Below are positions 44,051 to 52,710 of a DNA stretch of 64,000 nucleotides, in pieces; positions within the stretch are counted from its first letter, which is position 1; each line of letters opens with the position of its first letter. This DNA is from an uncultured Candidatus Saccharibacteria bacterium. GTDB taxonomy: Bacteria > Patescibacteriota > Minisyncoccia > Phycocordibacterales > CAIZLB01. Position numbers and translations under genes: made by a program. A model generated the notes under the pieces. The model saw nothing but the letters and a program-made list of their open reading frames with translations, did no database searches and had not been told where the DNA came from. The stretch is from assembly GCA_964550955.1 (NCBI GenBank), contig CAZKAF010000001.1:99951-163950 (forward strand). Direction: 5' to 3'.

Positions 44051-44559
44051 TCCCCTGTAGCTCAGCGGTAGAGCAATCGACTGTGAACGTGTCCTGCCTT
44101 TGATATACTCCAAAGTATGTTGAAAAAGAGGACATATGCTGATCGTGCGCCATATATGATTGAAGCTGTCAGAAAGCGGAGAATAAAGCTTCGCAAGATG
44201 GCCAGAGAGTATAAAGGCGGCAAATGTGAGATTTGCTAAATTCGCGAAGGCATAACGCAGCTTCCGGTACGAAAGTCCGGTCGCAAATAAGGTGAATTGC
44301 TGGAAGTCCTGATTCTCATGTCAGGATAATCAGCAGCCAAGCTCGGCAAGAAATTGCCTTGAAGGTTCAGAGACTATCCCTTCGGGGAGTAGTCGGATGC
44401 AGGTAGCAATGCAAAGCGTTCGACGAAGCGCCTTACGTCTAAACATGTATAAGTGCAGCAATGCAAAATTCATGCATGACGATGATATAGTCCACACCGT
44501 CAGTAATGATGGATAAACGTGTAATCGATTGGTCGTAGGTTCGATCCCTACCGGGGGAG
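44051..44559 (+). tRNA. tRNA gene split by a group I intron in the anticodon loop (anticodon UGU/Thr or GUU/Asn depending on exact junction)
   Basis: 5' exon: TCCCCTG-TA-GCTC-AGCGGTA-GAGC-A-ATCGA-CT... 3' exon: ...TGTAA-TCGAT-TGGTC-GTAGG-TTCGATC-CCTAC-CGGGGGA-G. The acceptor stem pairs across 435 nt. Confidence 0.7.
44083..44519 (+). ncRNA. group I self-splicing intron (no ORF)
   Basis: R element TTCAGAGACTAT (44366-77) and S element GATGATATAGTCC (44481-93) supply the P7 pairing GACTA/TAGTC. A G precedes the candidate 3' splice sites, a U precedes the 5' splice sites. Confidence 0.65.
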
Positions 44560-44561
44560 CA
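44542..44561 (+). repeat. attL: 20-bp core (tRNA 3' end)
   Basis: cgatccctaccgggggagca, identical to 52691-52710. Confidence 0.7.
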
Positions 44562-46137
44562 TTGAAGGATGAGAAGGCACGAAAGTGCCTTTTTGTCTTT
44601 GTGGCATAAGGGTATTATCTGGTTCGTAGCACTCTGAAAGCCTCGGCATCCATTCCACGAAATACTTAGCCAATAAAGTTAAATCCGACTTTATTTCTAG
44701 GCTGTTTTGCCAGAAGTTCGTAAACAATTGGTTGAACAAAACTCGCTTGTCGTCATTCTCTGCCATCTCATAGATTGCATCCGCGTTAAACGCCAATTCA
44801 TGGACAATGAGAGCTAGATTCTGGTACTCATCAGACTGATTATTAATACGAACCAGGGCGCTTTGGAAATTCTCTTCCTCAGCTGAAATATGGGCTATTT
44901 GGCGCTCACAGAATTCAAGCGGAACTGTACCTTCGAGCTTAGCCATATAAATTTTATCCTTCTTGGTTCGTATCATACCTAAGTGAGTGTTTAGACGATG
45001 AATTTCATTCTCGCGTTCTCCAATTTTCTCTTTGAACTCGCAACAAATAACATCCTCAATCCATTTGAGTAGGTCTTTGTTCTTGGGTGCAATTTTCTTG
45101 AATATGGGTCTAAGTTGCTCCTCAACCTTTTCTTCGCGGATATAGGTCTTTTTAGGGCATTTACGAGAGGTCAGGTGGTTATTGCAATGTCCGTACCAAT
45201 GACTCTTTTGCTTCTCCCAAGTCAAAGATTTGCCGCAGCCTTCACAGACAATCATTGTCTTGAATAGCGGGTTGTGAATATTGAATCGCGGCTGATTTAT
45301 CTTTCGCTTTAATATCTTCTGCACTTTATCAAATAGGTCTCTTCCAATTATTGGCTCATGCTTACCGCTGTATTTCTGGCTTTTCCATAAGAAAGAACCG
45401 TAATAGAAAGGGTCTTGAATTAAGACATGCAATCTCTTATGAAGAACTCTTTTTCCGCTTCTGGCGCGCAGACCACGACTGTAAAGCTCCTCTTCTAATT
45501 TTGTTAAAGAGTAGTTTCCAGTGGCGTATAAATCAAACATGTCGCGCATAAGCGGGGCAACACCCTTATCAATAACATGTATCTTCTTTCCCTTGTCTCC
45601 TATGGTCATATAGCCCAAAGGTGGTTTTGTTGGCAGCCAACCTTCAGCTATCTTTTCAACTTGCCCTTTCTTAACTTCTTCAGAAAGGTTAGCGATATAT
45701 TTCTTAGCTAATACGATTTCAATATCCCATCTGAACTTTTCATCAGACTTGGCATTTTTATGAATTACTAAGTTCTGTTTTACAAAGTGGATATATCTGT
45801 TTTCGTCTTGCTCAAGCCAATCATTAATAACAACAGCTTCCTTAAGATTTCTTGTAAGCCTGTCCACTTTCTCACAGAGTAAGTGAGATATATTATTCTT
45901 TACAAGAAATTCCATCATTTCCCCAAAGACCTTTCTTTGTTTCGAGCCGCTGGCGCTTTCAGCAATACAGAATTCTTTAATAAGGTTGAATCCCTTTTGG
46001 TCAGAACGTTCCTTTAGTAATTTACTTTGAGCGGGAAGGGAATAACCTGTTTCCTCCTGTTCTCTGGTAGAGACACGGCAGTACATGGCTGCGCGATTAT
46101 TCGCCCCAAGTGATGGGGCTTGTTTCTGGGTCTTCAT
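44548..46137 (-). CDS. large serine recombinase (integrase)
   Basis: N-terminal resolvase catalytic domain (AAMYCRVSTREQ). Recombinase domain. Zinc ribbon CEGCGK...CPKK. Coiled-coil. The last 4 codons overlap the tRNA 3' end. Confidence 0.85.
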   Translation of the reverse strand: MKTQKQAPSLGANNRAAMYCRVSTREQEETGYSLPAQSKLLKERSDQKGFNLIKEFCIAESASGSKQRKVFGEMMEFLVKNNISHLLCEKVDRLTRNLKEAVVINDWLEQDENRYIHFVKQNLVIHKNAKSDEKFRWDIEIVLAKKYIANLSEEVKKGQVEKIAEGWLPTKPPLGYMTIGDKGKKIHVIDKGVAPLMRDMFDLYATGNYSLTKLEEELYSRGLRARSGKRVLHKRLHVLIQDPFYYGSFLWKSQKYSGKHEPIIGRDLFDKVQKILKRKINQPRFNIHNPLFKTMIVCEGCGKSLTWEKQKSHWYGHCNNHLTSRKCPKKTYIREEKVEEQLRPIFKKIAPKNKDLLKWIEDVICCEFKEKIGERENEIHRLNTHLGMIRTKKDKIYMAKLEGTVPLEFCERQIAHISAEEENFQSALVRINNQSDEYQNLALIVHELAFNADAIYEMAENDDKRVLFNQLFTNFWQNSLEIKSDLTLLAKYFVEWMPRLSECYEPDNTLMPQRQKGTFVPSHPSMLPR

Positions 46138-46254: not shown

Positions 46255-46476
46255 TTAATTAAATAGCGTTAGTACAAGAATCAATACAGTAAAAGTGAGA
46301 ATCCATCCAAGTTTTCCGTATTTCTTTTCCCATTGGATATTTTCTTTGACAGCGTGCAACATTATTTCTTGTTCTGACATTTTGTAAACTTCCTTATAGT
46401 TTTCTACTTTGAACTTGGCTGAAATGGTAGCTTCCAAATCTTCGCGACTAGTTTTTTCTTCTTTTGTGATTGCCAT
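46255..46476 (-). CDS. small protein with C-terminal TM helix
   Basis: 73-aa ORF on the island. Confidence 0.35.
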   Translation of the reverse strand: MAITKEEKTSREDLEATISAKFKVENYKEVYKMSEQEIMLHAVKENIQWEKKYGKLGWILTFTVLILVLTLFN

Positions 46477-46701
46477 TGCTTTTCAATTAGGTTGATAACA
46501 AGGCAAACGAAAAAGCGACAGCCGTTGCCTTGCAACCCATACTGAAAGCACAAAGGCTCGCAATCTGGAAGGTCAGCTGCCGCTTTCTAGTCCAGATTGG
46601 TTGGACCACAGAAAAACAGCGCTGCCTTTGCGCGTAAATATTCAATATGGGTTGCTCTTACATTCTACCATACTGAATGAGGGTGGCAACTTGTGGCAAG
46701 G

Positions 46702-46875
46702 TCAGCCATCGTCTGATTTCTCCACTTCAGCATTAAAATAAGCCTCAAGTATCGTGGTCAATAGCTTAATCATGGAGGTCTCCTCAATAGCAGCAATCAT
46801 CTTAAGATTTTGGTGCAGCTTCTTGGGTATCCTCACAAGCACAGTCTTTTTGTTTTGATGTAAATTTGTATACAT
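46702..46875 (-). CDS. 57-aa ribbon-helix-helix (CopG/Arc-like) DNA-binding protein (not in ORF track)
   Basis: MYTNLHQNKKTVLVRIPKKLHQNLKMIAAIEETSMIKLLTTILEAYFNAEVEKSDDG. A beta-strand plus two helices, with the KxxLxRIPxxLHxxLK pattern. Confidence 0.4.
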   Translation of the reverse strand: MYTNLHQNKKTVLVRIPKKLHQNLKMIAAIEETSMIKLLTTILEAYFNAEVEKSDDG

Positions 46876-47555
46876 TTTGTTTTAGTCGCCCGACTTTTAC
46901 CTTCTAACCCCCTCCTGCGGGATGCAGTTGCTGGGTTTCTTTCTGTATCAGACGGATGCCTTTAGTGCAGCAGCTACCCTTAAGTATTGCTCATTTGTGC
47001 AATCACTTTTTCGAACTCTGCCTAAAGATGAAATGCTGCGGCGCTCTTCATTGAACTGGGCGAGAAGTCGTACACTCGTTTTCCCAGTTTTTCGCAAGAA
47101 CGTCTCAACACTCCTTGTTGTTTTTAACGCGCTCCCTCCTCAGTCGCGCCATTGTGTAAGTGATGAGTTTTACTTCTGCCCACACTTAATAGAAGGTTTC
47201 GTCTGAATTGTTCAAGGCTAAATTAATAGCCCTAAAGCCCCTTGGTGGTAAAGTCCCAAACACTAAGAGGCTTTAGGAGTATCAATCTTCTTGTTCTTTT
47301 GAAGTATCACAAATAAACCCAGATAAAACTGAGCCACTGATTGGGCTATTGTATTAAGTTCATCATCAGCAATGAATACACCTGCCTTTGCATTGATTTC
47401 TTTGAACTTCTGTATTTGTTCGGGTGTTAGCTTCACTCATTGAGAATATCAGTAACTCTTATACACTCTACATACACCCTCCCAAGTCTATATTCAGAAA
47501 ATAACCCTTATTTCAGGCTGTCATCAATTACTTATTAACATGTACAAGGAAAAAT

Positions 47556-48191
47556 CTAGATTAAAGTTATGTCTAAATCAATCGTGTAGCCTTCGCCTCG
47601 AATACCTCTTATTGGCTTTGCTCCAGTATTAAGGAGTTTTATTTTTTCCATTACTTTATTTGTCTTTGTGATTAGCTCGCCGACTCGAATTCCATGATTG
47701 CCGAATGCAGACTGAATATCCTTTGTTTTAAGTGGTCCGTCAGTGTTGGCGAATAAAGTAAGTAATCTATAACGTTGAGATTCTTTGCTTACAGTACCTA
47801 TCTTCGTATCATCCATATAAATAGCCCCCTCAGAGTCTATTTTTATCTTAGTCTTTTTTGTACCAGTATATTGAGCGGGGTCAAAAGTCTTTGTATTAAC
47901 ATCGACAGCGTAACTTTCTGCCAAACCAACTTCATCAATTAAAGAAATGTCATCTGTCTTGATTACAAAGCATCTCTTCTGAGTGCTGCCTTTTTCTTTT
48001 TCATAACAGCCATAACCATGCTTAAAATCCTCAACAATTCCTAGCTGTTTGAAATGAAGTAGAATTTCGTACACATCTTGTCTTGTAAGGTCTTTTTGCA
48101 GCTCAGATATGGAAATACCCAGAGTCTTGCCACCAAACTGCTGGTTCTGCTGTTGAAGATAACTGAGGATTGTTCGCTCGTCTGATTTCAT
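47556..48191 (-). CDS. hypothetical protein with N-terminal winged-helix-like region
   Basis: 211 aa. Start codon overlaps the track start of the divergent Xis-like gene. Confidence 0.45.
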   Translation of the reverse strand: MKSDERTILSYLQQQNQQFGGKTLGISISELQKDLTRQDVYEILLHFKQLGIVEDFKHGYGCYEKEKGSTQKRCFVIKTDDISLIDEVGLAESYAVDVNTKTFDPAQYTGTKKTKIKIDSEGAIYMDDTKIGTVSKESQRYRLLTLFANTDGPLKTKDIQSAFGNHGIRVGELITKTNKVMEKIKLLNTGAKPIRGIRGEGYTIDLDITLI

Positions 48192-48231
48192 GTATATTTA
48201 CAGTATAACTTGCCACAAGTTGCCAAACAAC

Positions 48232-48414
48232 ATGCCTTCAAAAACACCCCAATTTTATACCCTGAAAGAGGCTTCTGAATTACTCAAAGTAAGTGTAAGG
48301 AGTCTATACCGTTATATTCAGACCAAAAAGTTGGTGGCAACAAAGGTTGGCTATTGGCGAATAAGCAAAAATGACTTAGACAGTTTTATTAAGGATGGCT
48401 CAAACATTAAATAA
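48232..48414 (+). CDS. excisionase-family HTH DNA-binding protein (MerR-superfamily Xis-like)
   Basis: YTLKEASELLKVSVRSLYRYIQTKKLVATKVGYWRISKNDLDSFI. The ATG at 48232 is preferred over the track start 48190. Confidence 0.55.
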   Translation: MPSKTPQFYTLKEASELLKVSVRSLYRYIQTKKLVATKVGYWRISKNDLDSFIKDGSNIK

Positions 48415-50266
48415 AATGAAACTGTATCTTAAATCATTGGAGCTAACAAATTACCGTACTTTCGGTAGTGAAACCCTAGATATAGATAAAGAGATAACTC
48501 TTCTTGTCGGGGCTAATGAATCAGGCAAGACTAATCTTCTGGATGCACTAGAGCTGCTTGATGTTGAGAAGACATTTAATGATTCGGATACAAAAATTAA
48601 CTCTGAATACTCCGCAAAGAATTACGAGCCATATCTAAGTTATAGAATGGAGCTGACTGAAGAAATGCAAACTAAGCTTAAAAGGTATGCAAGATACTTT
48701 GAAAAGAATAACGAGGTTTTTATAAATCGTAATGGGAGCGATATTGACGATATAACAGTAGATACGGTAAATGACGTAAGCTATGATTTCCCAATTGCAT
48801 ATAGGAACGTATCAGATGTAGAACAGAAACTCATTAGCAAGAACGGCATTGTGGCTCTTTCCCCGCAGAGTTACACACTTACTTCCATTAATTATTTCAA
48901 GAACTCAAAACTTTTCAAAGACGGAAAGGTTATAAAGATTGAAGATAAAGAAAGAAACAGGCTCCTAACTGCAAAAATAAAAGAAATTGTCTTGGAAAAT
49001 ATGCCATCTGTGTTTCTCTGGAAGTATTCAGATGCCTACTATATTCCCAAAGATGTACCGATTGATTTTTATAATCAGAAGGACAAATTTCAGTCTGTAA
49101 TAAATCTCTTTAAGTTGGGGGACATAGATGAAGATAAGATTGTTACACACCTAACGAATAGAGACAGTGTATACATAATCAATTTTTTGAATACTTTGTC
49201 TAAGAAAGTATCACTTGTGCTGAATAACACTTGGAAACAGAGGAAAAATATAAAGCTCAATCTTCATTTTAAAGAAACTTGGATAGAGATTCTGGTAGAG
49301 GAGAAGGACTATCAAATTGACCCAAATAAAAGAAGTGAAGGGCTACAGTGGTATCTTTCGTTCCTTATCAATTTTCGTTCAAAACTACAGACTCTCAAAA
49401 ATAATATAATCTTGTTTGACCAGCCTGGAGACAAGCTTCATCCTGGCGGACAAAGAGACCTTATGGAAAGATTTGAAGAGATGGCTGAATTTAATCAGAT
49501 TGTTTATTCAACTCATACGCCGTTTACAATAAATAAGGATTATCCAGAAAGAGTTAGGCTTATAACTAGACCCGAGGATGACAGTAAGATTATCAACAGG
49601 CTAAGTAACAGAGAGATTTTTAAGGATGAGTTATTGAGAAGCTCACTTGGTTTAAGTTTGTCTGATGTATCTCCTGTGGCTGAGAAAAATATTCTTGTTG
49701 AAGGTTTGTTGGATAAGCTCATATTAACGGATTTTATAGAGAAATTGAAAAAGTTTAAGTTCAGTATCAAGCTGAACCAGTCTGTTATCATTCCAGCGCA
49801 CAGCGCTTCGAAGATTCTTTATTATGCTAATTTTATTAAATCAAACGGATTAGACGTTTTAGCGATATTTGATGGAGACGCAGCAGGGAAGGAGGCAATT
49901 GTAGAAAATAAAAAGAAGAAGGTTTTGGAAAGTAGGGAAATCTTACTAGTGTCTTTAGGCAAAGGGACTGCACAAACTATAGAAGACATTATCCCGATAA
50001 AAATTATTACTGATTCTATTAATGAAATAGGAGTGCTTATTGATAAAAATAAATTTACTCCAATTGCATTAACGACAACACCAGTAATGCCACTTATAAA
50101 GGGTCATTTCGCAAAACTTGGAATGGATTTTTCAGAATCAGATAAACATCTGTTTTCAATTAAGGTATTGGAAAAGTTTAAGAAGATGCCCGTTAAGGAA
50201 ACGGATTTAAAGGGTAGTCTGTCAGGACTCTATGAATTAGTTAAAGAAATAAAAAAGAAGTTATAG
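48395..50266 (+). CDS. OLD-family nuclease: N-terminal ABC-type ATPase + C-terminal TOPRIM domain
   Basis: P-loop LLVGANESGKTNLL. Walker B/D-loop ILFDQPGDKLHP. H-loop YSTHTP. TOPRIM ILVEGLLDK...IFDGDAAGKEA. Confidence 0.7.
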   Translation: MAQTLNKMKLYLKSLELTNYRTFGSETLDIDKEITLLVGANESGKTNLLDALELLDVEKTFNDSDTKINSEYSAKNYEPYLSYRMELTEEMQTKLKRYARYFEKNNEVFINRNGSDIDDITVDTVNDVSYDFPIAYRNVSDVEQKLISKNGIVALSPQSYTLTSINYFKNSKLFKDGKVIKIEDKERNRLLTAKIKEIVLENMPSVFLWKYSDAYYIPKDVPIDFYNQKDKFQSVINLFKLGDIDEDKIVTHLTNRDSVYIINFLNTLSKKVSLVLNNTWKQRKNIKLNLHFKETWIEILVEEKDYQIDPNKRSEGLQWYLSFLINFRSKLQTLKNNIILFDQPGDKLHPGGQRDLMERFEEMAEFNQIVYSTHTPFTINKDYPERVRLITRPEDDSKIINRLSNREIFKDELLRSSLGLSLSDVSPVAEKNILVEGLLDKLILTDFIEKLKKFKFSIKLNQSVIIPAHSASKILYYANFIKSNGLDVLAIFDGDAAGKEAIVENKKKKVLESREILLVSLGKGTAQTIEDIIPIKIITDSINEIGVLIDKNKFTPIALTTTPVMPLIKGHFAKLGMDFSESDKHLFSIKVLEKFKKMPVKETDLKGSLSGLYELVKEIKKKL

Positions 50267-50566
50267 ATTTAACTTATGTTTTAGAGAGGAAAATATCGCA
50301 CCTACCAAAAAGCCAGCCAGGACACCAATCATGAAAAGTACCACTCCTGCGGCGTATGGATTATTCACTAATTCATTGAATTTTTCAGGATTACTTTTGT
50401 TCATTTCTTGGTAAGCGGCAACAACGATGACACCCCAAAAAGCACTGAAGCCTAAATATTCAAAATCGCTTATTGTCTTTCTGGAACCGTTGCCTTTTCT
50501 GTAACCCCACACCAAGCCAAAGCCAGCCAGTATGATTAGAAAGTAAGTATATGTATCTATGTCCAT
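50261..50566 (-). CDS. small membrane protein (coordinates approximate)
   Basis: Three TM helices beginning MDIDTYTYFLIILAGFGL. The track ORF extends to 50695, but the upstream part looks non-coding. Confidence 0.3.
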   Translation of the reverse strand: MDIDTYTYFLIILAGFGLVWGYRKGNGSRKTISDFEYLGFSAFWGVIVVAAYQEMNKSNPEKFNELVNNPYAAGVVLFMIGVLAGFLVGAIFSSLKHKLNL

Positions 50567-50747
50567 AGTGGCACAAATACTACATTTCTTGCGGCGAAAA
50601 GCAACCTCACGGTGCATATTAAAGTTGAGTCTTGAAAGGGTGTAAAGAGTGCTTTGTGGTACAATTATGCTAACATCAGTACACCCTATGACCATCTCAA
50701 ATAATCAATGTTTGCTCACAAATTTTGTCCTTGTTCCAGTCAATTCC

Positions 50748-51350
50748 ATGGAGCCTGCAACTTTCTTTACTGATAAAATAAAGGCAAAGTTTGTGGAGAT
50801 TTATGGAGATTCCAGCAAGCCGACAATAACTCAATTTCCAGAGCTGTTGGTAATTTTTGATGCTGTAAATCAAATTAATGTTTCTATAGAAAGAGGAAAG
50901 GCTGTGATTACTGACAGTAAGGTAACCAATTTCAATCAACGAGACCTAAATAAGTTATCTCAGTTTGCACACTCTATATTTAATGTTTTAGAGTTAGGGA
51001 AGTTAAAAGCTTATGGCTTTAATACAATTTGCTTAATGGATTTAGAAGCGGGAACTAATTCTTCGAAGTTGTTAAGCGATAGCTTTTTAAAGCTTGATAA
51101 ATTTACTTCAAGTGAAGGGGAAATAATTGGCGGAGGTGTAAGATTAATTTATAAAAATGCCTCGTCTGTGAGGAATGACCTAAGAATTGACCCATTCTTT
51201 GCTGAAGGTTCCCTTGATGAGACAGAGACGATAAGAGTGAATCAGAATTCAAATTTTGATAAGCAGGTCTTGCCAGATTTATCAGAGTTACAAGGTTGTA
51301 TTTCAGATATTTACAATGCATTGCCAGTTTTAATTGGAAAGCTTATATGA
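50748..51350 (+). CDS. hypothetical protein (island cargo, gene 1 of 3)
   Basis: The ATG at 50748 is in frame with the track GTG start 50649. The stop overlaps the next start (ATGA). Confidence 0.45.
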   Translation: MEPATFFTDKIKAKFVEIYGDSSKPTITQFPELLVIFDAVNQINVSIERGKAVITDSKVTNFNQRDLNKLSQFAHSIFNVLELGKLKAYGFNTICLMDLEAGTNSSKLLSDSFLKLDKFTSSEGEIIGGGVRLIYKNASSVRNDLRIDPFFAEGSLDETETIRVNQNSNFDKQVLPDLSELQGCISDIYNALPVLIGKLI

Positions 51351-51775
51351 TTGAACATAATTTAATTAAAATCGTGACAAGCGATAATATTTCTGTGACT
51401 ACTCAGCCTATGGGTTTGGGGGTTGCCTTGTCAGACACATACATTATCGATACCTCAAAGTGTATTGATAATGTAACCCAATTTCAATATGTAGGCTCTG
51501 TTTCTGCCCTTACGACTAGTTTTACAATCACGCATAGAAACGACTCTGGTTTCAGTAATTCTGATTTAAAGAGATTAAACAAGATTGTATACAACTTTCA
51601 GGATACATTGCCTCATACAGTTATATTTGAAAAAGTTAAGAAATATGAACATCGTTTTAACTTAAAGTCTGAGGATTTTCACACAAAGTGGGAATTAGGA
51701 GAATTACCTGCGACCCCTGAATTTTATGACTGGAATAACTCCTACAAGACTTTAAATTTAAATGTCAGTAAGTAA
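51347..51775 (+). CDS. hypothetical protein (island cargo, gene 2 of 3)
   Basis: Translationally coupled; overlaps the next gene by 14 nt. Confidence 0.45.
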   Translation: MIEHNLIKIVTSDNISVTTQPMGLGVALSDTYIIDTSKCIDNVTQFQYVGSVSALTTSFTITHRNDSGFSNSDLKRLNKIVYNFQDTLPHTVIFEKVKKYEHRFNLKSEDFHTKWELGELPATPEFYDWNNSYKTLNLNVSK

Positions 51776-52244
51776 ACGTGTACAGTATATAAAAGATACT
51801 ATTAAAAGTTATAAAGATATTTTTGAATATCCAGAGGTGTCTTTAAATTCAGTAAAGACTAGCAATAATAGTATCTACTTTCCTCGGGAAGTTGATTTTG
51901 ATAAGGCTGAGGGTGCCGAATTGAAAGGGGGAGTCGGTTTCCTCTCTGTTTTTGAGGATTATGATGAAACCAATAAAAAAGTCAAAGGATATATTTATCG
52001 ATTTTCATCTGACGAATATACGTACCTAGTAGAACATAAAAAATCAAAAGAATGTGTAGATACATATTTTAATTTTCATTACCAGGATGACGATAAGCAT
52101 GAACCTCACGTTTCATTTCTCCACAATTCAATTCGATACAATTCTGCAAATATTCAACTGGATGAATTTCTTGATTTCGTTAAGAGAACCTTTATGGGTC
52201 CACGAAAAGGAATGAATTATAGAGTTTGGCATTCGAGGAATTAA
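51762..52244 (+). CDS. hypothetical protein (island cargo, gene 3 of 3)
   Basis: 160 aa; no family recognised. Confidence 0.45.
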   Translation: MSVSKRVQYIKDTIKSYKDIFEYPEVSLNSVKTSNNSIYFPREVDFDKAEGAELKGGVGFLSVFEDYDETNKKVKGYIYRFSSDEYTYLVEHKKSKECVDTYFNFHYQDDDKHEPHVSFLHNSIRYNSANIQLDEFLDFVKRTFMGPRKGMNYRVWHSRN

Positions 52245-52690
52245 TTCTGGGCTTTTTCCTCCTCTAAGAGCGGGTATCCTACCGTCTATCTAAAATAACG
52301 TTTAGGAAACTGCCAGTACCTAAATTTGAAAACCCTGAAATCCGCCATGCGTTGCTCGAAGGGTATGTACTTTTCTATCATATTTAATGATACGGTCTAT
52401 ACCCATGCTAATACTTTTGACACGCTCGCTCCATAATACTTACCAATCCCCAGGATTGCATGCGTATGTATCAGTATGACTATGTATATGTAAGGTTACT
52501 TAGCTGACTATCGCCAATAAAGTCCTTATTTGCTGTATCGAAACAGAAGGATGGGGGAAAACCTCATCCCATTTCATGGTTCGTATAACATCCCTCCATG
52601 CGAGCAGAAAAAGAAAGGGCGCCAGCAAAGCTGGTGCTTTTTCTTTTTCCTGTGACCTGGGTCAGCGATCGAATTTCGACGAAGGAGGGG

Positions 52691-52710
52691 CGATCCCTAC
52701 CGGGGGAGCA
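52691..52710 (+). repeat. attR: 20-bp direct repeat of the tRNA 3' end
   Basis: cgatccctaccgggggagca. Confidence 0.7.

Follow-up and report, generated by a model that had tools for sequence, protein, structure and literature searches.

A candidate toxin-antitoxin-like three-gene operon with a TumA-type domain and a separate OLD-family nuclease on one integrase-bearing island

A gene for an OLD-family ATPase/TOPRIM nuclease is followed by three tightly overlapping genes in the window, the whole 64,000-nt stretch of DNA that was analysed, in which all positions given here are counted. The locus raises the question whether these three genes (the trio) work with the nuclease or apart from it, both of which were offered as options in the first-pass annotation, and what kind of system they form.

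All four genes lie on a low-GC island of 8.15 kb, which carries a serine recombinase and has integrated into the tRNA gene at its left boundary, at the 3' end of this gene. The GC content of the island is 34-42% compared to ~52% outside. An intron-split tRNA gene is the integration target. Its group I intron was recognised by Rfam RF00028 (67.6 bits, E 9e-16, positions 44195-44513). ARAGORN missed the intron-containing tRNA and returned a 73-nt tRNA from the version spliced in silico, with the anticodon Asn-GTT or Thr-TGT set by the splice point chosen. Two 25-nt direct repeats with 92% identity between copies and a spacing of 8149 bp were found at the tRNA 3' end and at the far boundary. The recombinase matched Resolvase (1.3e-19), Recombinase (4.3e-14) and Zn_ribbon_recom (1.2e-7) in Pfam and an integrase in PHROG (6.7e-70). 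Low GC, large serine recombinase and direct repeats all support the integrase-bearing island that had been proposed. The features are as follows.

44051..44561, + strand: split tRNA gene, group I intron at ~44085-44521 in the anticodon loop
44537..44561, + strand: direct repeat, left copy, 25 nt, tRNA 3' end
44548..46137, - strand: large serine recombinase, 529 aa, the island integrase by Pfam and PHROG
48190..48414, + strand: HTH_17/excisionase-type DNA-binding protein, 74 aa, 20-nt overlap with the OLD start
48395..50266, + strand: Class-1-type OLD family nuclease, 623 aa, N-terminal ABC ATPase and C-terminal TOPRIM
50261..50563, - strand: small membrane protein, ~100 aa, with three segments that look hydrophobic on inspection
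50688..51350, + strand: trio gene A (ORF2), predicted TBP-like pseudo-dimeric saddle protein of an uncatalogued family, 220 aa with corrected start
51347..51775, + strand: trio gene B (ORF3), 142 aa, variable N-terminal half and C-terminal TumA-type antitoxin domain
51762..52244, + strand: trio gene C (ORF4), 160 aa, α+β protein, candidate toxin/effector
52686..52710, + strand: direct repeat, right copy, far island boundary, GC back to ~50% past the repeat

The OLD-family assignment made at first reading was confirmed by Pfam (AAA_15, 6.5e-20; OLD-like_TOPRIM, 2.9e-7) and by PADLOC, the check suggested at the time, in which 'Old' was the top model (1.7e-24). The GajA, AriA and PtuA models of PADLOC also matched the protein, the GajA HMMs more weakly than 'Old'. 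The nearest solved structure was 6p74, the Class 1 OLD of Thermus scotoductus (Ts OLD; E 1.6e-6). The motifs quoted earlier were located at residues 39-46 (GANESGKT), 341-350 (FDQPGDKLHP), 372-374 (STH), 435-437 (VEG) and 493-495 (DGD). In the ATPase head, K45 of Walker A, D342 of Walker B, H349 of the D-loop and H374 of the H-loop are conserved among 79 homologs; the equivalents in Ts OLD are K34, E276, H283 and H310 according to the alignment and the Ts OLD paper. The TOPRIM ligands are likewise all conserved, E436, D493 and D495 for metal A (E377, D431 and D433 in Ts OLD) and D440, T528 and E530 for metal B (D381, S478 and E480). Inspection of the catalytic residues thus found the nuclease intact, with one substitution in the ATPase head. 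The canonical catalytic glutamate after the Walker B aspartate (E277 in Ts OLD) is absent, and Q343 stands in its place. Glutamine occupies this position in the window protein, 19/19 close homologs and 5 further distant ones, while 53 of 60 remoter relatives have glutamate there. Since glutamine is conserved throughout the clade, Q343 is not a sign of decay. A conserved Asp/Glu is also present in the clade three residues past this position. From these residues, the nuclease, whose clade is centred on Patescibacteria, probably binds ATP but has slow hydrolysis or none. Such a Gln-fixed clade would be a natural hydrolysis-impaired variant, and could separate the roles of ATP binding and hydrolysis in Class 1 OLD nucleases.

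Analysis of the immediate neighbours showed an HTH_17 protein (Pfam HTH_17, 3.9e-14; excisionase model TIGR01764, 3.6e-9) encoded directly before the nuclease, and in L003/L004 the OLD homolog is likewise preceded immediately by a 40%-identical homolog of this protein. No UvrD-like or helicase gene was detected by ORF and domain search on the island or adjacent to OLD, in agreement with the earlier remark that GajB is missing. Gabija was rejected on this ground, as the GajB helicase is absent from both the island and the OLD-homolog loci. PARIS was rejected as well, because ATPase and TOPRIM are fused in the 623-aa protein while AriA and AriB of PARIS are two proteins; the AriA model covers OLD residues 11-378 only. 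From family membership an anti-phage role of OLD is a reasonable inference; it may nick or degrade DNA upon phage infection, like P2 Old and the Vibrio Class 1 OLD. The small oppositely oriented protein with three hydrophobic segments, noted at first reading, is encoded at 50261-50563. It gave only sub-threshold Pfam matches, no homolog of it was found in the OLD-homolog loci, and it is tied to neither module.

The trio ORFs end at 51350, 51775 and 52244 with overlaps of 4 nt (ATGA) and 14 nt, exactly as reported from the first reading. Exhaustive HMMER searches at E<1e-3 gave 48, 20 and 42 matches for ORF2, ORF3 and ORF4 with best non-self E-values of 8e-39, 9e-19 and 6e-36, and because of these homologs they are taken as real genes and not chance ORFs. 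Only the ORF2 start at 50748 had to be revised. Its homologs begin at the position of ATG 50688 and keep the first strand, so by this alignment the true start is probably 50688. The block is conserved elsewhere, as the proposed co-occurrence check revealed: it is complete in 11/11 independent loci (eight fetched via ORF4 relatives and three via ORF2 relatives, the window counted among these eleven), in the same order and strand, with genes adjacent or overlapping, and ORF3 and ORF4 overlap by 4-14 nt in most of them. The trio is so far found only in metagenomes and MAGs.

Family alignment distinguished a hypervariable, S/T/N-rich N-terminal half of ORF3 from a conserved TumA-type domain at about residues 70-137. 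The C-terminal 45 residues match the TumA models NF045776 (2.3e-6) and PDC-M44A of PADLOC (9.6e-7). The TumA-like segment spans 46 columns and scores 27.7 bits against the 100-bit equivalog cut-off of NF045776, so ORF3 is a domain homolog of TumA and not an equivalog. NCBIfam and PADLOC TumA matches were also obtained for 3/3 ORF3 relatives tested, and the middle genes of newly fetched trio loci match an independent TumA HMM. In HHalign, the ORF3 family was aligned to eight genuine TumA sequences of cyanobacterial origin with a probability of 97.1% and E 6.8e-11. The family consensus gave six weak tblastn matches in plasmids. One of them lies in a gene annotated as tumA, and three lie in genes whose immediate downstream neighbour is annotated as TumE/DUF6516. 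On this sequence evidence, ORF3 carries a true TumA antitoxin domain. The statement that the three ORFs have no recognisable domains therefore needs correcting for ORF3. The families of the other two are missing from Pfam, NCBIfam, PADLOC and PHROGs.

TumE-TumA, recognised only in 2023, is a two-gene system with the toxin 3' of the antitoxin (PMC10584680); RNase activity has been proposed for the system, not proven. The position of TumE corresponds to that of ORF4. The AF2 model of ORF4 (pLDDT 93, pTM 0.87) is composed of an N-terminal helix, a 7-stranded antiparallel sheet and a C-terminal helix. In the description of TumE by Durairaj et al. 2023 (PMC10584680), a 7-stranded antiparallel sheet has two helices packed against it; set beside this description, the elements of the ORF4 model agree in number and order. 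The model had no PDB or viral structural match. ORF4, its 38 relatives and their consensus gave no match to PF20126, NF045777 or PDC-M44B except one relative at E 0.07, while genuine TumE, as positive control, scored 9.4e-18 and 4.3e-19. HHalign of the ORF4 family to TumE was weak (probability 1-2.5%). The global alignment placed the motifs E, YxY, [RH]YD and PH collinearly, and as a group the family out-scored decoys against the TumE HMM, with p-values that are inflated because the sequences in the test are related. Family alignment showed a His-rich motif and invariant or near-invariant E65, Y79, H106, H116 and R125.

ORF2 is predicted to consist of tandem S1-H1-S2-S3-S4-S5-H2 repeats, which form a saddle as in the TBP-domain superfamily. 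Matches of guanidino-kinase type span the shared sheet only, and no nucleotide-binding motif is present.

Most likely, the trio is a three-part toxin-antitoxin or abortive-infection module. We put at roughly 0.55 the probability that it is an autonomous, three-part, TumA-linked toxin-antitoxin-like module separate from a stand-alone OLD. For the individual parts, we infer that C is toxic, that B neutralises it and that A has a further role. Gene C would be an effector that arrests growth, probably as a hydrolase directed at RNA which blocks translation as TumE does, and gene B would keep C inactive via its TumA domain, the two genes being translationally coupled. Gene A may be the third component which senses a trigger, a nucleic acid or a phage product, on its saddle surface; alternatively, it may control the stability of B through the variable tail. 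More tentatively, the trio could be an undescribed three-component system of uncultured bacteria, in which a TumA-type domain was recruited to control effectors of a new family, be they a very remote branch of TumE or a fold of their own. With a TBP-like sensor, this would form a trigger-responsive abortive-infection or defence module and not just an addiction pair. The TumA domain is seen here in a fixed three-gene setting with two uncatalogued families, and the trio offers testable hypotheses on the binding target of this domain, on ORF4 as a remote TumE and on the job of a TBP-like saddle in toxin-antitoxin or defence systems. It is also an addition to the conflict systems catalogued in uncultured bacteria with small genomes, of which there are few.

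Other explanations were weighed against this toxin-antitoxin-like reading. In one, ORF2, whether TBP-like or guanidino-kinase-like, would be the effector or toxin, ORF3 the antitoxin or adaptor and ORF4 the regulator or sensor. This division of roles is unlikely, as the toxin of TumE-TumA sits downstream of its antitoxin, the invariant His, Glu and Arg set of ORF4 is more enzyme-like, and the kinase resemblance of ORF2 is confined to the sheet. Still less likely is that the trio forms a housekeeping or regulatory complex restricted to a lineage of uncultured bacteria with small genomes and is present on the island by chance. Several loci do lie among core genes, with gyrA, L31 and chorismate synthase in L012 and PheRS, gyrB and SecE-NusG in L014, and the trio is absent from the sequenced phages and plasmids searched. 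But the loci bear signs of horizontal mobility: the neighbourhood is different at each one, with type I R-M, transposases, HicAB, an SLFN-like helicase with MazG and terminase among the neighbours; the trio is AT-richer than its own flanks in 10/10 loci measured; and the same trio variant occurs with differing flanks beside transposases in L030-L032. The rare and patchy distribution, with about 40-50 representatives in 1.8 billion clusters, and the TumA antitoxin domain also speak against housekeeping. Lower again in probability is that the genes belong to a prophage or satellite, serving for instance superinfection exclusion or anti-defence, and not to a host-owned toxin-antitoxin. The window trio rides an integrative element, the trio of L033 is immediately preceded by an HTH gene and the gene of a terminase small subunit, and Bro-N, MazG-like and SLFN-helicase genes are close by in L012; against this, searches of 50,697 phage records, 2.9 million viral contigs and BFVD gave no relative, and phage structural genes are absent at most trio loci. 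The idea that the trio is an accessory of OLD within one four-gene defence system, prompted by its place on the same strand and island 420 bp downstream of OLD and by the frequent partnering of OLD proteins, as in Gabija, PARIS and retrons (compare the PADLOC matches to GajA, AriA and PtuA), is close to refuted, since the six loci fetched for OLD homologs of ~60% identity, three of them independent, have other downstream genes and no ORF2, ORF3 or ORF4 relative, OLD is absent from the 10 other independent trio loci, and an oppositely oriented gene lies between the two.

Because the OLD-homolog loci lack the trio and the other trio loci lack OLD, the trio is independent of OLD. Of the two options first offered, partner module and independent system, the second is the one upheld. 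The island carries two independent cargo modules, HTH_17 with OLD and the three-gene operon, and for annotation it teaches that adjacency on an island is not to be taken for functional partnership.

Compared with known systems, the nuclease resembles the Class 1 OLDs (P2 Old, Ts OLD 6p74, Vibrio cholerae Class 1 OLD, E. coli YbjD) in its single-chain ABC ATPase and TOPRIM, the ATPase residues of Walker A (Lys), Walker B (acidic), D-loop (His) and H-loop (His), the complete ligand sets for metal A (E, DxD) and metal B (D, S/T-x-E), the absence of a downstream UvrD-like helicase and its carriage on a mobile element. It differs in the clade-wide Q343 and the overlapping HTH_17 gene, and its sequence similarity to Ts OLD is low. 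ORF2 shares 11-13% identity with the TBP-domain superfamily (TATA-binding protein, RNase HIII N-domain, RnlA NTD/NRD, DUF4468); it matches no family model, and a gene for a TumA-domain protein accompanies it in every case.

Tripartite toxin-antitoxin systems, TAC (toxin-antitoxin-chaperone) and ParE/PaaA/PaaR, also have a third always-linked gene beside an antitoxin-toxin pair, and the extra segment of the antitoxin, probably disordered, could bind the third component. Unlike in TAC and Paa, gene A is neither SecB-like nor an HTH regulator and comes first in the operon, and the extra segment of gene B is at the N-terminal end instead of the C-terminal one. Homology between the trio and any TAC or Paa component was not found, and TAC membership was rejected as the third gene does not encode a SecB-like chaperone.

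The trio also resembles TumE-TumA (DUF6516/PF20126; PADLOC candidate PDC-M44). The middle trio gene encodes a homolog of the TumA domain (HHalign 97%), its partner lies immediately downstream and overlapping and encodes a small α+β protein with His-rich strands and a predicted helix/7-strand/helix order, and the cassette acts as mobile DNA. In contrast to TumE-TumA, ORF4 is 30-60 residues longer than TumE and escapes every TumE model, ORF3 has a long tail of variable sequence ahead of its TumA domain, and the operon has three genes, with the extra TBP-like protein always first and present in 11/11 loci.

The OLD gene (ATPase/TOPRIM nuclease) and the three ORFs behind it lie on a clear island, across which GC content falls from ~52% to 34-42% (roughly 44.5-52.5 kb of the GC profile). 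This drop, a 529-aa serine recombinase and a 25-nt direct repeat uphold the integrase-bearing island proposed in the first-pass annotation. ORF listing and translation also confirmed its 623-aa ORF and the three tightly linked ORFs, which overlap by ATGA (4 nt) and then by 14 nt.

Features of the island and its target site
44051-44561, tRNA gene whose anticodon loop is interrupted by a ~437-nt group I intron (Rfam RF00028, 67.6 bits)
44537-44561 and 52686-52710, 25-nt direct repeat AGG[TT/GG]CGATCCCTACCGGGGGAGCA, enclosing 8149 bp
Island left end, large serine recombinase, 529 aa (domains Resolvase, Recombinase, Zn_ribbon_recom; PHROG integrase 6.7e-70)
46255-48191, minus strand, four ORFs without assignable function (73, 57, 57 and 211 aa)
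48190-48414, HTH_17/excisionase-type gene, overlapping the OLD start by 20 nt
48395-50266, plus strand, OLD, 623 aa
Ends at 51350, 51775 and 52244, the trio: ORF2 (gene A), ORF3 (gene B) and ORF4 (gene C)

The left repeat copy is the 3' end of the tRNA gene, which is uncommon as a serine recombinase target. The intron-bearing tRNA was not recognised by ARAGORN as it stands, and a 73-nt tRNA was called once it was spliced in silico. The group I U/G splice rule permits Asn-GTT (junction between 44084 and 44522) or Thr-TGT (between 44082 and 44520); Asn is favoured by U1-A72, the G discriminator and the CUGUUAA loop, judged against E. coli tRNA-Asn. One 57-aa ORF of the minus-strand group gave a weak RHH/HicB-like match (E 0.003), and none of the four is common to other OLD-bearing islands. 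The ~440 bp between ORF4 and the right repeat (52245-52685) are apparently non-coding, with GC climbing from 34% to ~50% and no ORF, Rfam match or repeat found, and may include the site of island-end recombination.

The trio is a strikingly conserved block. When 1.84 billion representatives were scanned exhaustively by HMMER with the three concatenated proteins (E<1e-3), 110 matches were returned, 48 to ORF2 (proteins of ~215-230 aa), 20 to ORF3 (108-156 aa, limited to the C-terminal half) and 42 to ORF4 (160-190 aa). Contexts were fetched through ORF4 relatives (L009, L010, L011, L012/13, L014/15, L016, L017-19) and separately through ORF2 relatives (L029, L030-32, L033), making 11 independent loci with the window. 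HMMs confirmed ORF2-like, ORF3-like and ORF4-like genes in identical order, on a single strand and adjacent or overlapping in 11/11, the B/C overlap usually being 4-14 nt; of the two readings offered in the first-pass annotation, that of an independent system is supported. The flanking genes are different in every locus.

Genes flanking the trio in other loci
L012, gyrA, L31 and chorismate synthase
L014, PheRS and gyrB
L016, NUDIX/HD genes and HicAB
L029 and L030, type I R-M
L031 and L032, transposases
L033, terminase small subunit, NUDIX and 2',5'-ligase genes

In all ten loci measured the cassette has a higher AT content than the DNA on either side (GC 0.30 against 0.49 in L012, for example). 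One variant (L030, L031, L032; ~1180-2860), found in dozens of samples with an upstream 285-aa gene of no known function, has three downstream contexts, with FtsK and type I R-M or with rve and DDE transposases, which suggests four genes moving together. The differing flanks, the AT-richness and the single variant in three contexts together point to a horizontally moving module. The trio is a fixed, mobile, translationally coupled operon, and its middle protein carries an antitoxin domain.

This domain is the conserved C-terminal ~70 residues of ORF3, which follow a hypervariable, S/T/N-rich N-terminal half in the family alignment. It matches NCBIfam TumA, the antitoxin of the two-gene TumE-TumA system (PMC10584680), and PADLOC PDC-M44A. 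Searched by tblastn against annotated plasmids, the family consensus gave six weak matches, three in genes directly upstream of an annotated TumE/DUF6516 (toxin) gene and one in an annotated tumA. Against a comparison set from nine cyanobacterial plasmid loci (8 TumA and 7 TumE sequences), HHalign paired the ORF3 family with TumA at a probability of 97.1% (E 6.8e-11, 46 columns), and homology of the two is solid. The model PDC-M44A matches the same residues as NF045776 (TumA) and has equal profile length (76), and genuine TumE scores 4e-19 on PDC-M44B and 9e-18 on NF045777; the PADLOC candidate PDC-M44 thus appears to be TumA plus TumE.

Any relation of ORF4 to TumE would be remote. A word-indexed homolog search with ORF4 retrieved only itself, and one with its family profile five proteins, none an annotated TumE. 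Scans of Pfam, PADLOC and NCBIfam with the consensus did not reach TumE. AlphaFold2 with 38 sequences gave a confident model (pLDDT 93, pTM 0.87) in which an N-terminal helix, an antiparallel seven-stranded sheet and a C-terminal helix follow each other. This layout, compared by description, agrees with that published for TumE/DUF6516 (PMC10584680), and as reported there for TumE, a PDB search with the model gave no convincing neighbour. The ORF4 family conserves E65, Y79 (YxYRF), H106 (FHY[D/Q]), H116 (HxPH) and R125. The corresponding series in genuine TumE is E, YRY, FRYD and PHHxH, with no change of order, and the two series line up in a global HHalign alignment. The HHalign probability was 1-2.5% (P 0.006-0.056; controls 0.26-0.7). 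TumE and PDC-M44B models detected no ORF4 member or consensus, at 9e-18 and 4e-19 for the genuine TumE control. As a group the family ranked above decoys on the TumE HMM, its members not being mutually independent. On this weak alignment, lack of model detection and non-independent decoy test, ORF4 as a remote TumE is plausible and unproven, with a probability we put at about 0.55.

For ORF2, public records give different starts (NCBI 200 aa from 50748 against Logan 233 aa from GTG 50649); on the evidence of the homolog alignment, ATG 50688, giving 220 aa, is most likely the true one. AlphaFold2 with 46 sequences (pLDDT 95.7, pTM 0.89) predicted a TBP-like pseudo-dimer with the element order S1-H1-S2-S5-H2 occurring twice, and no curated family matched. 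The earlier statement that the trio has no recognisable domains needs correcting for ORF3 with its TumA domain. Gene C would be the effector arresting growth, probably as an RNA-directed hydrolase as proposed for TumE, the TumA domain of gene B would neutralise it, and gene A may be an obligatory third component, either a saddle-surface sensor or a controller of B through the variable tail. ORF2 as the effector itself is unlikely. Somewhat less likely still is a complex with no role in conflict, set beside the antitoxin domain of gene B. That the three are phage or satellite genes is the more improbable again; a terminase small subunit gene flanks one locus, and searches of 50,697 phage records, of 72,556 plasmids and of IMG/VR found no trio relative. 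When loci were sought with an alignment restricted to very close ORF4 relatives, one turned up in a genome, one in a metagenome and none in viral sequences.

The further proposal, that the trio is a new partner module of OLD, fails and can hardly be maintained. The close homologs of OLD, at 58-62% identity, belong to Patescibacteria MAGs (source names Paceibacterota, Magasanikbacteria), and serine recombinases recur in three independent contexts with different downstream genes.

Genes downstream of OLD homologs
L003/4, 422-aa protein without known function
L005/6, 84-aa ORF, then MazG-like and HNH_2
L007/8, 170-aa and 107-aa proteins without known function

HMMs of the ORF2, ORF3 and ORF4 families found nothing significant in these loci, and among the 11 trio loci OLD stands beside the trio in the window only, so that co-occurrence of all four genes was not seen elsewhere among the loci fetched. 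In L005/L006 (3758-13377) the OLD homolog set lies between two serine recombinases that differ from each other, and may represent tandem islands or another set of OLD-associated cargo. The HTH_17 gene has a 40% identical counterpart just ahead of the OLD homolog in L003/L004 (L003 7787-7969), and its protein, which also weakly matches MADS1 (mad1), could be a directionality factor of the island or an OLD regulator.

OLD itself is a known kind of protein. Its family assignment is secure from profile matches (Pfam AAA_15 6.5e-20, OLD-like_TOPRIM 2.9e-7; top PADLOC model 'Old', 1.7e-24, while AriA, PtuA and GajA models match mainly the ATPase head), and its best solved relative is 6p74, the Thermus scotoductus (Ts) Class 1 OLD; the first-pass call was correct. 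For 79 aligned homologs, positions were matched to the residues that PMC7049728 identifies in Ts OLD. In this alignment the nuclease site has all its ligands (metal A, E436, D493, D495; metal B, D440, T528, E530), and K45, D342 (Walker B), H349 (D-loop) and H374 (H-loop) are kept in the ATPase. The catalytic residues of the nuclease are intact; the ATPase departs from the canonical set at one position. In canonical ABC ATPases the Glu after the Walker B acidic residue is the general base (E277 in Ts OLD). Q343 takes this position, as Gln does in 19/19 close homologs and five relatives ~30% identical, whereas in 53 of the 60 remoter relatives this residue is Glu; the clade motif is D-Q-P-G-[D/E] against D-E-P, with an Asp/Glu conserved three residues after Q343. 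Such constancy marks a fixed clade trait and not decay, and suggests a natural E-to-Q variant which would bind ATP and hydrolyse it slowly, poorly or not at all. This change is the interesting part of the gene.

No helicase, AriB or PtuB-like gene adjoins OLD, in line with the earlier remark that UvrD-like GajB is missing; OLD is therefore Class-1-like. Gabija, Septu/retron and PARIS, whose ATPase and TOPRIM are separate proteins, were rejected. A TAC assignment for the trio was also rejected, since gene A, the component added to the antitoxin-effector pair, is not a SecB-like chaperone. PADLOC returned 'Old' for OLD and PDC-M44A for ORF3 but missed ORF4, and tools of this type would miss the trio because their B-component model (PDC-M44B) has no match in it. 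The trio varies the recently described TumE-TumA theme in a new way, with three genes and two uncatalogued families.
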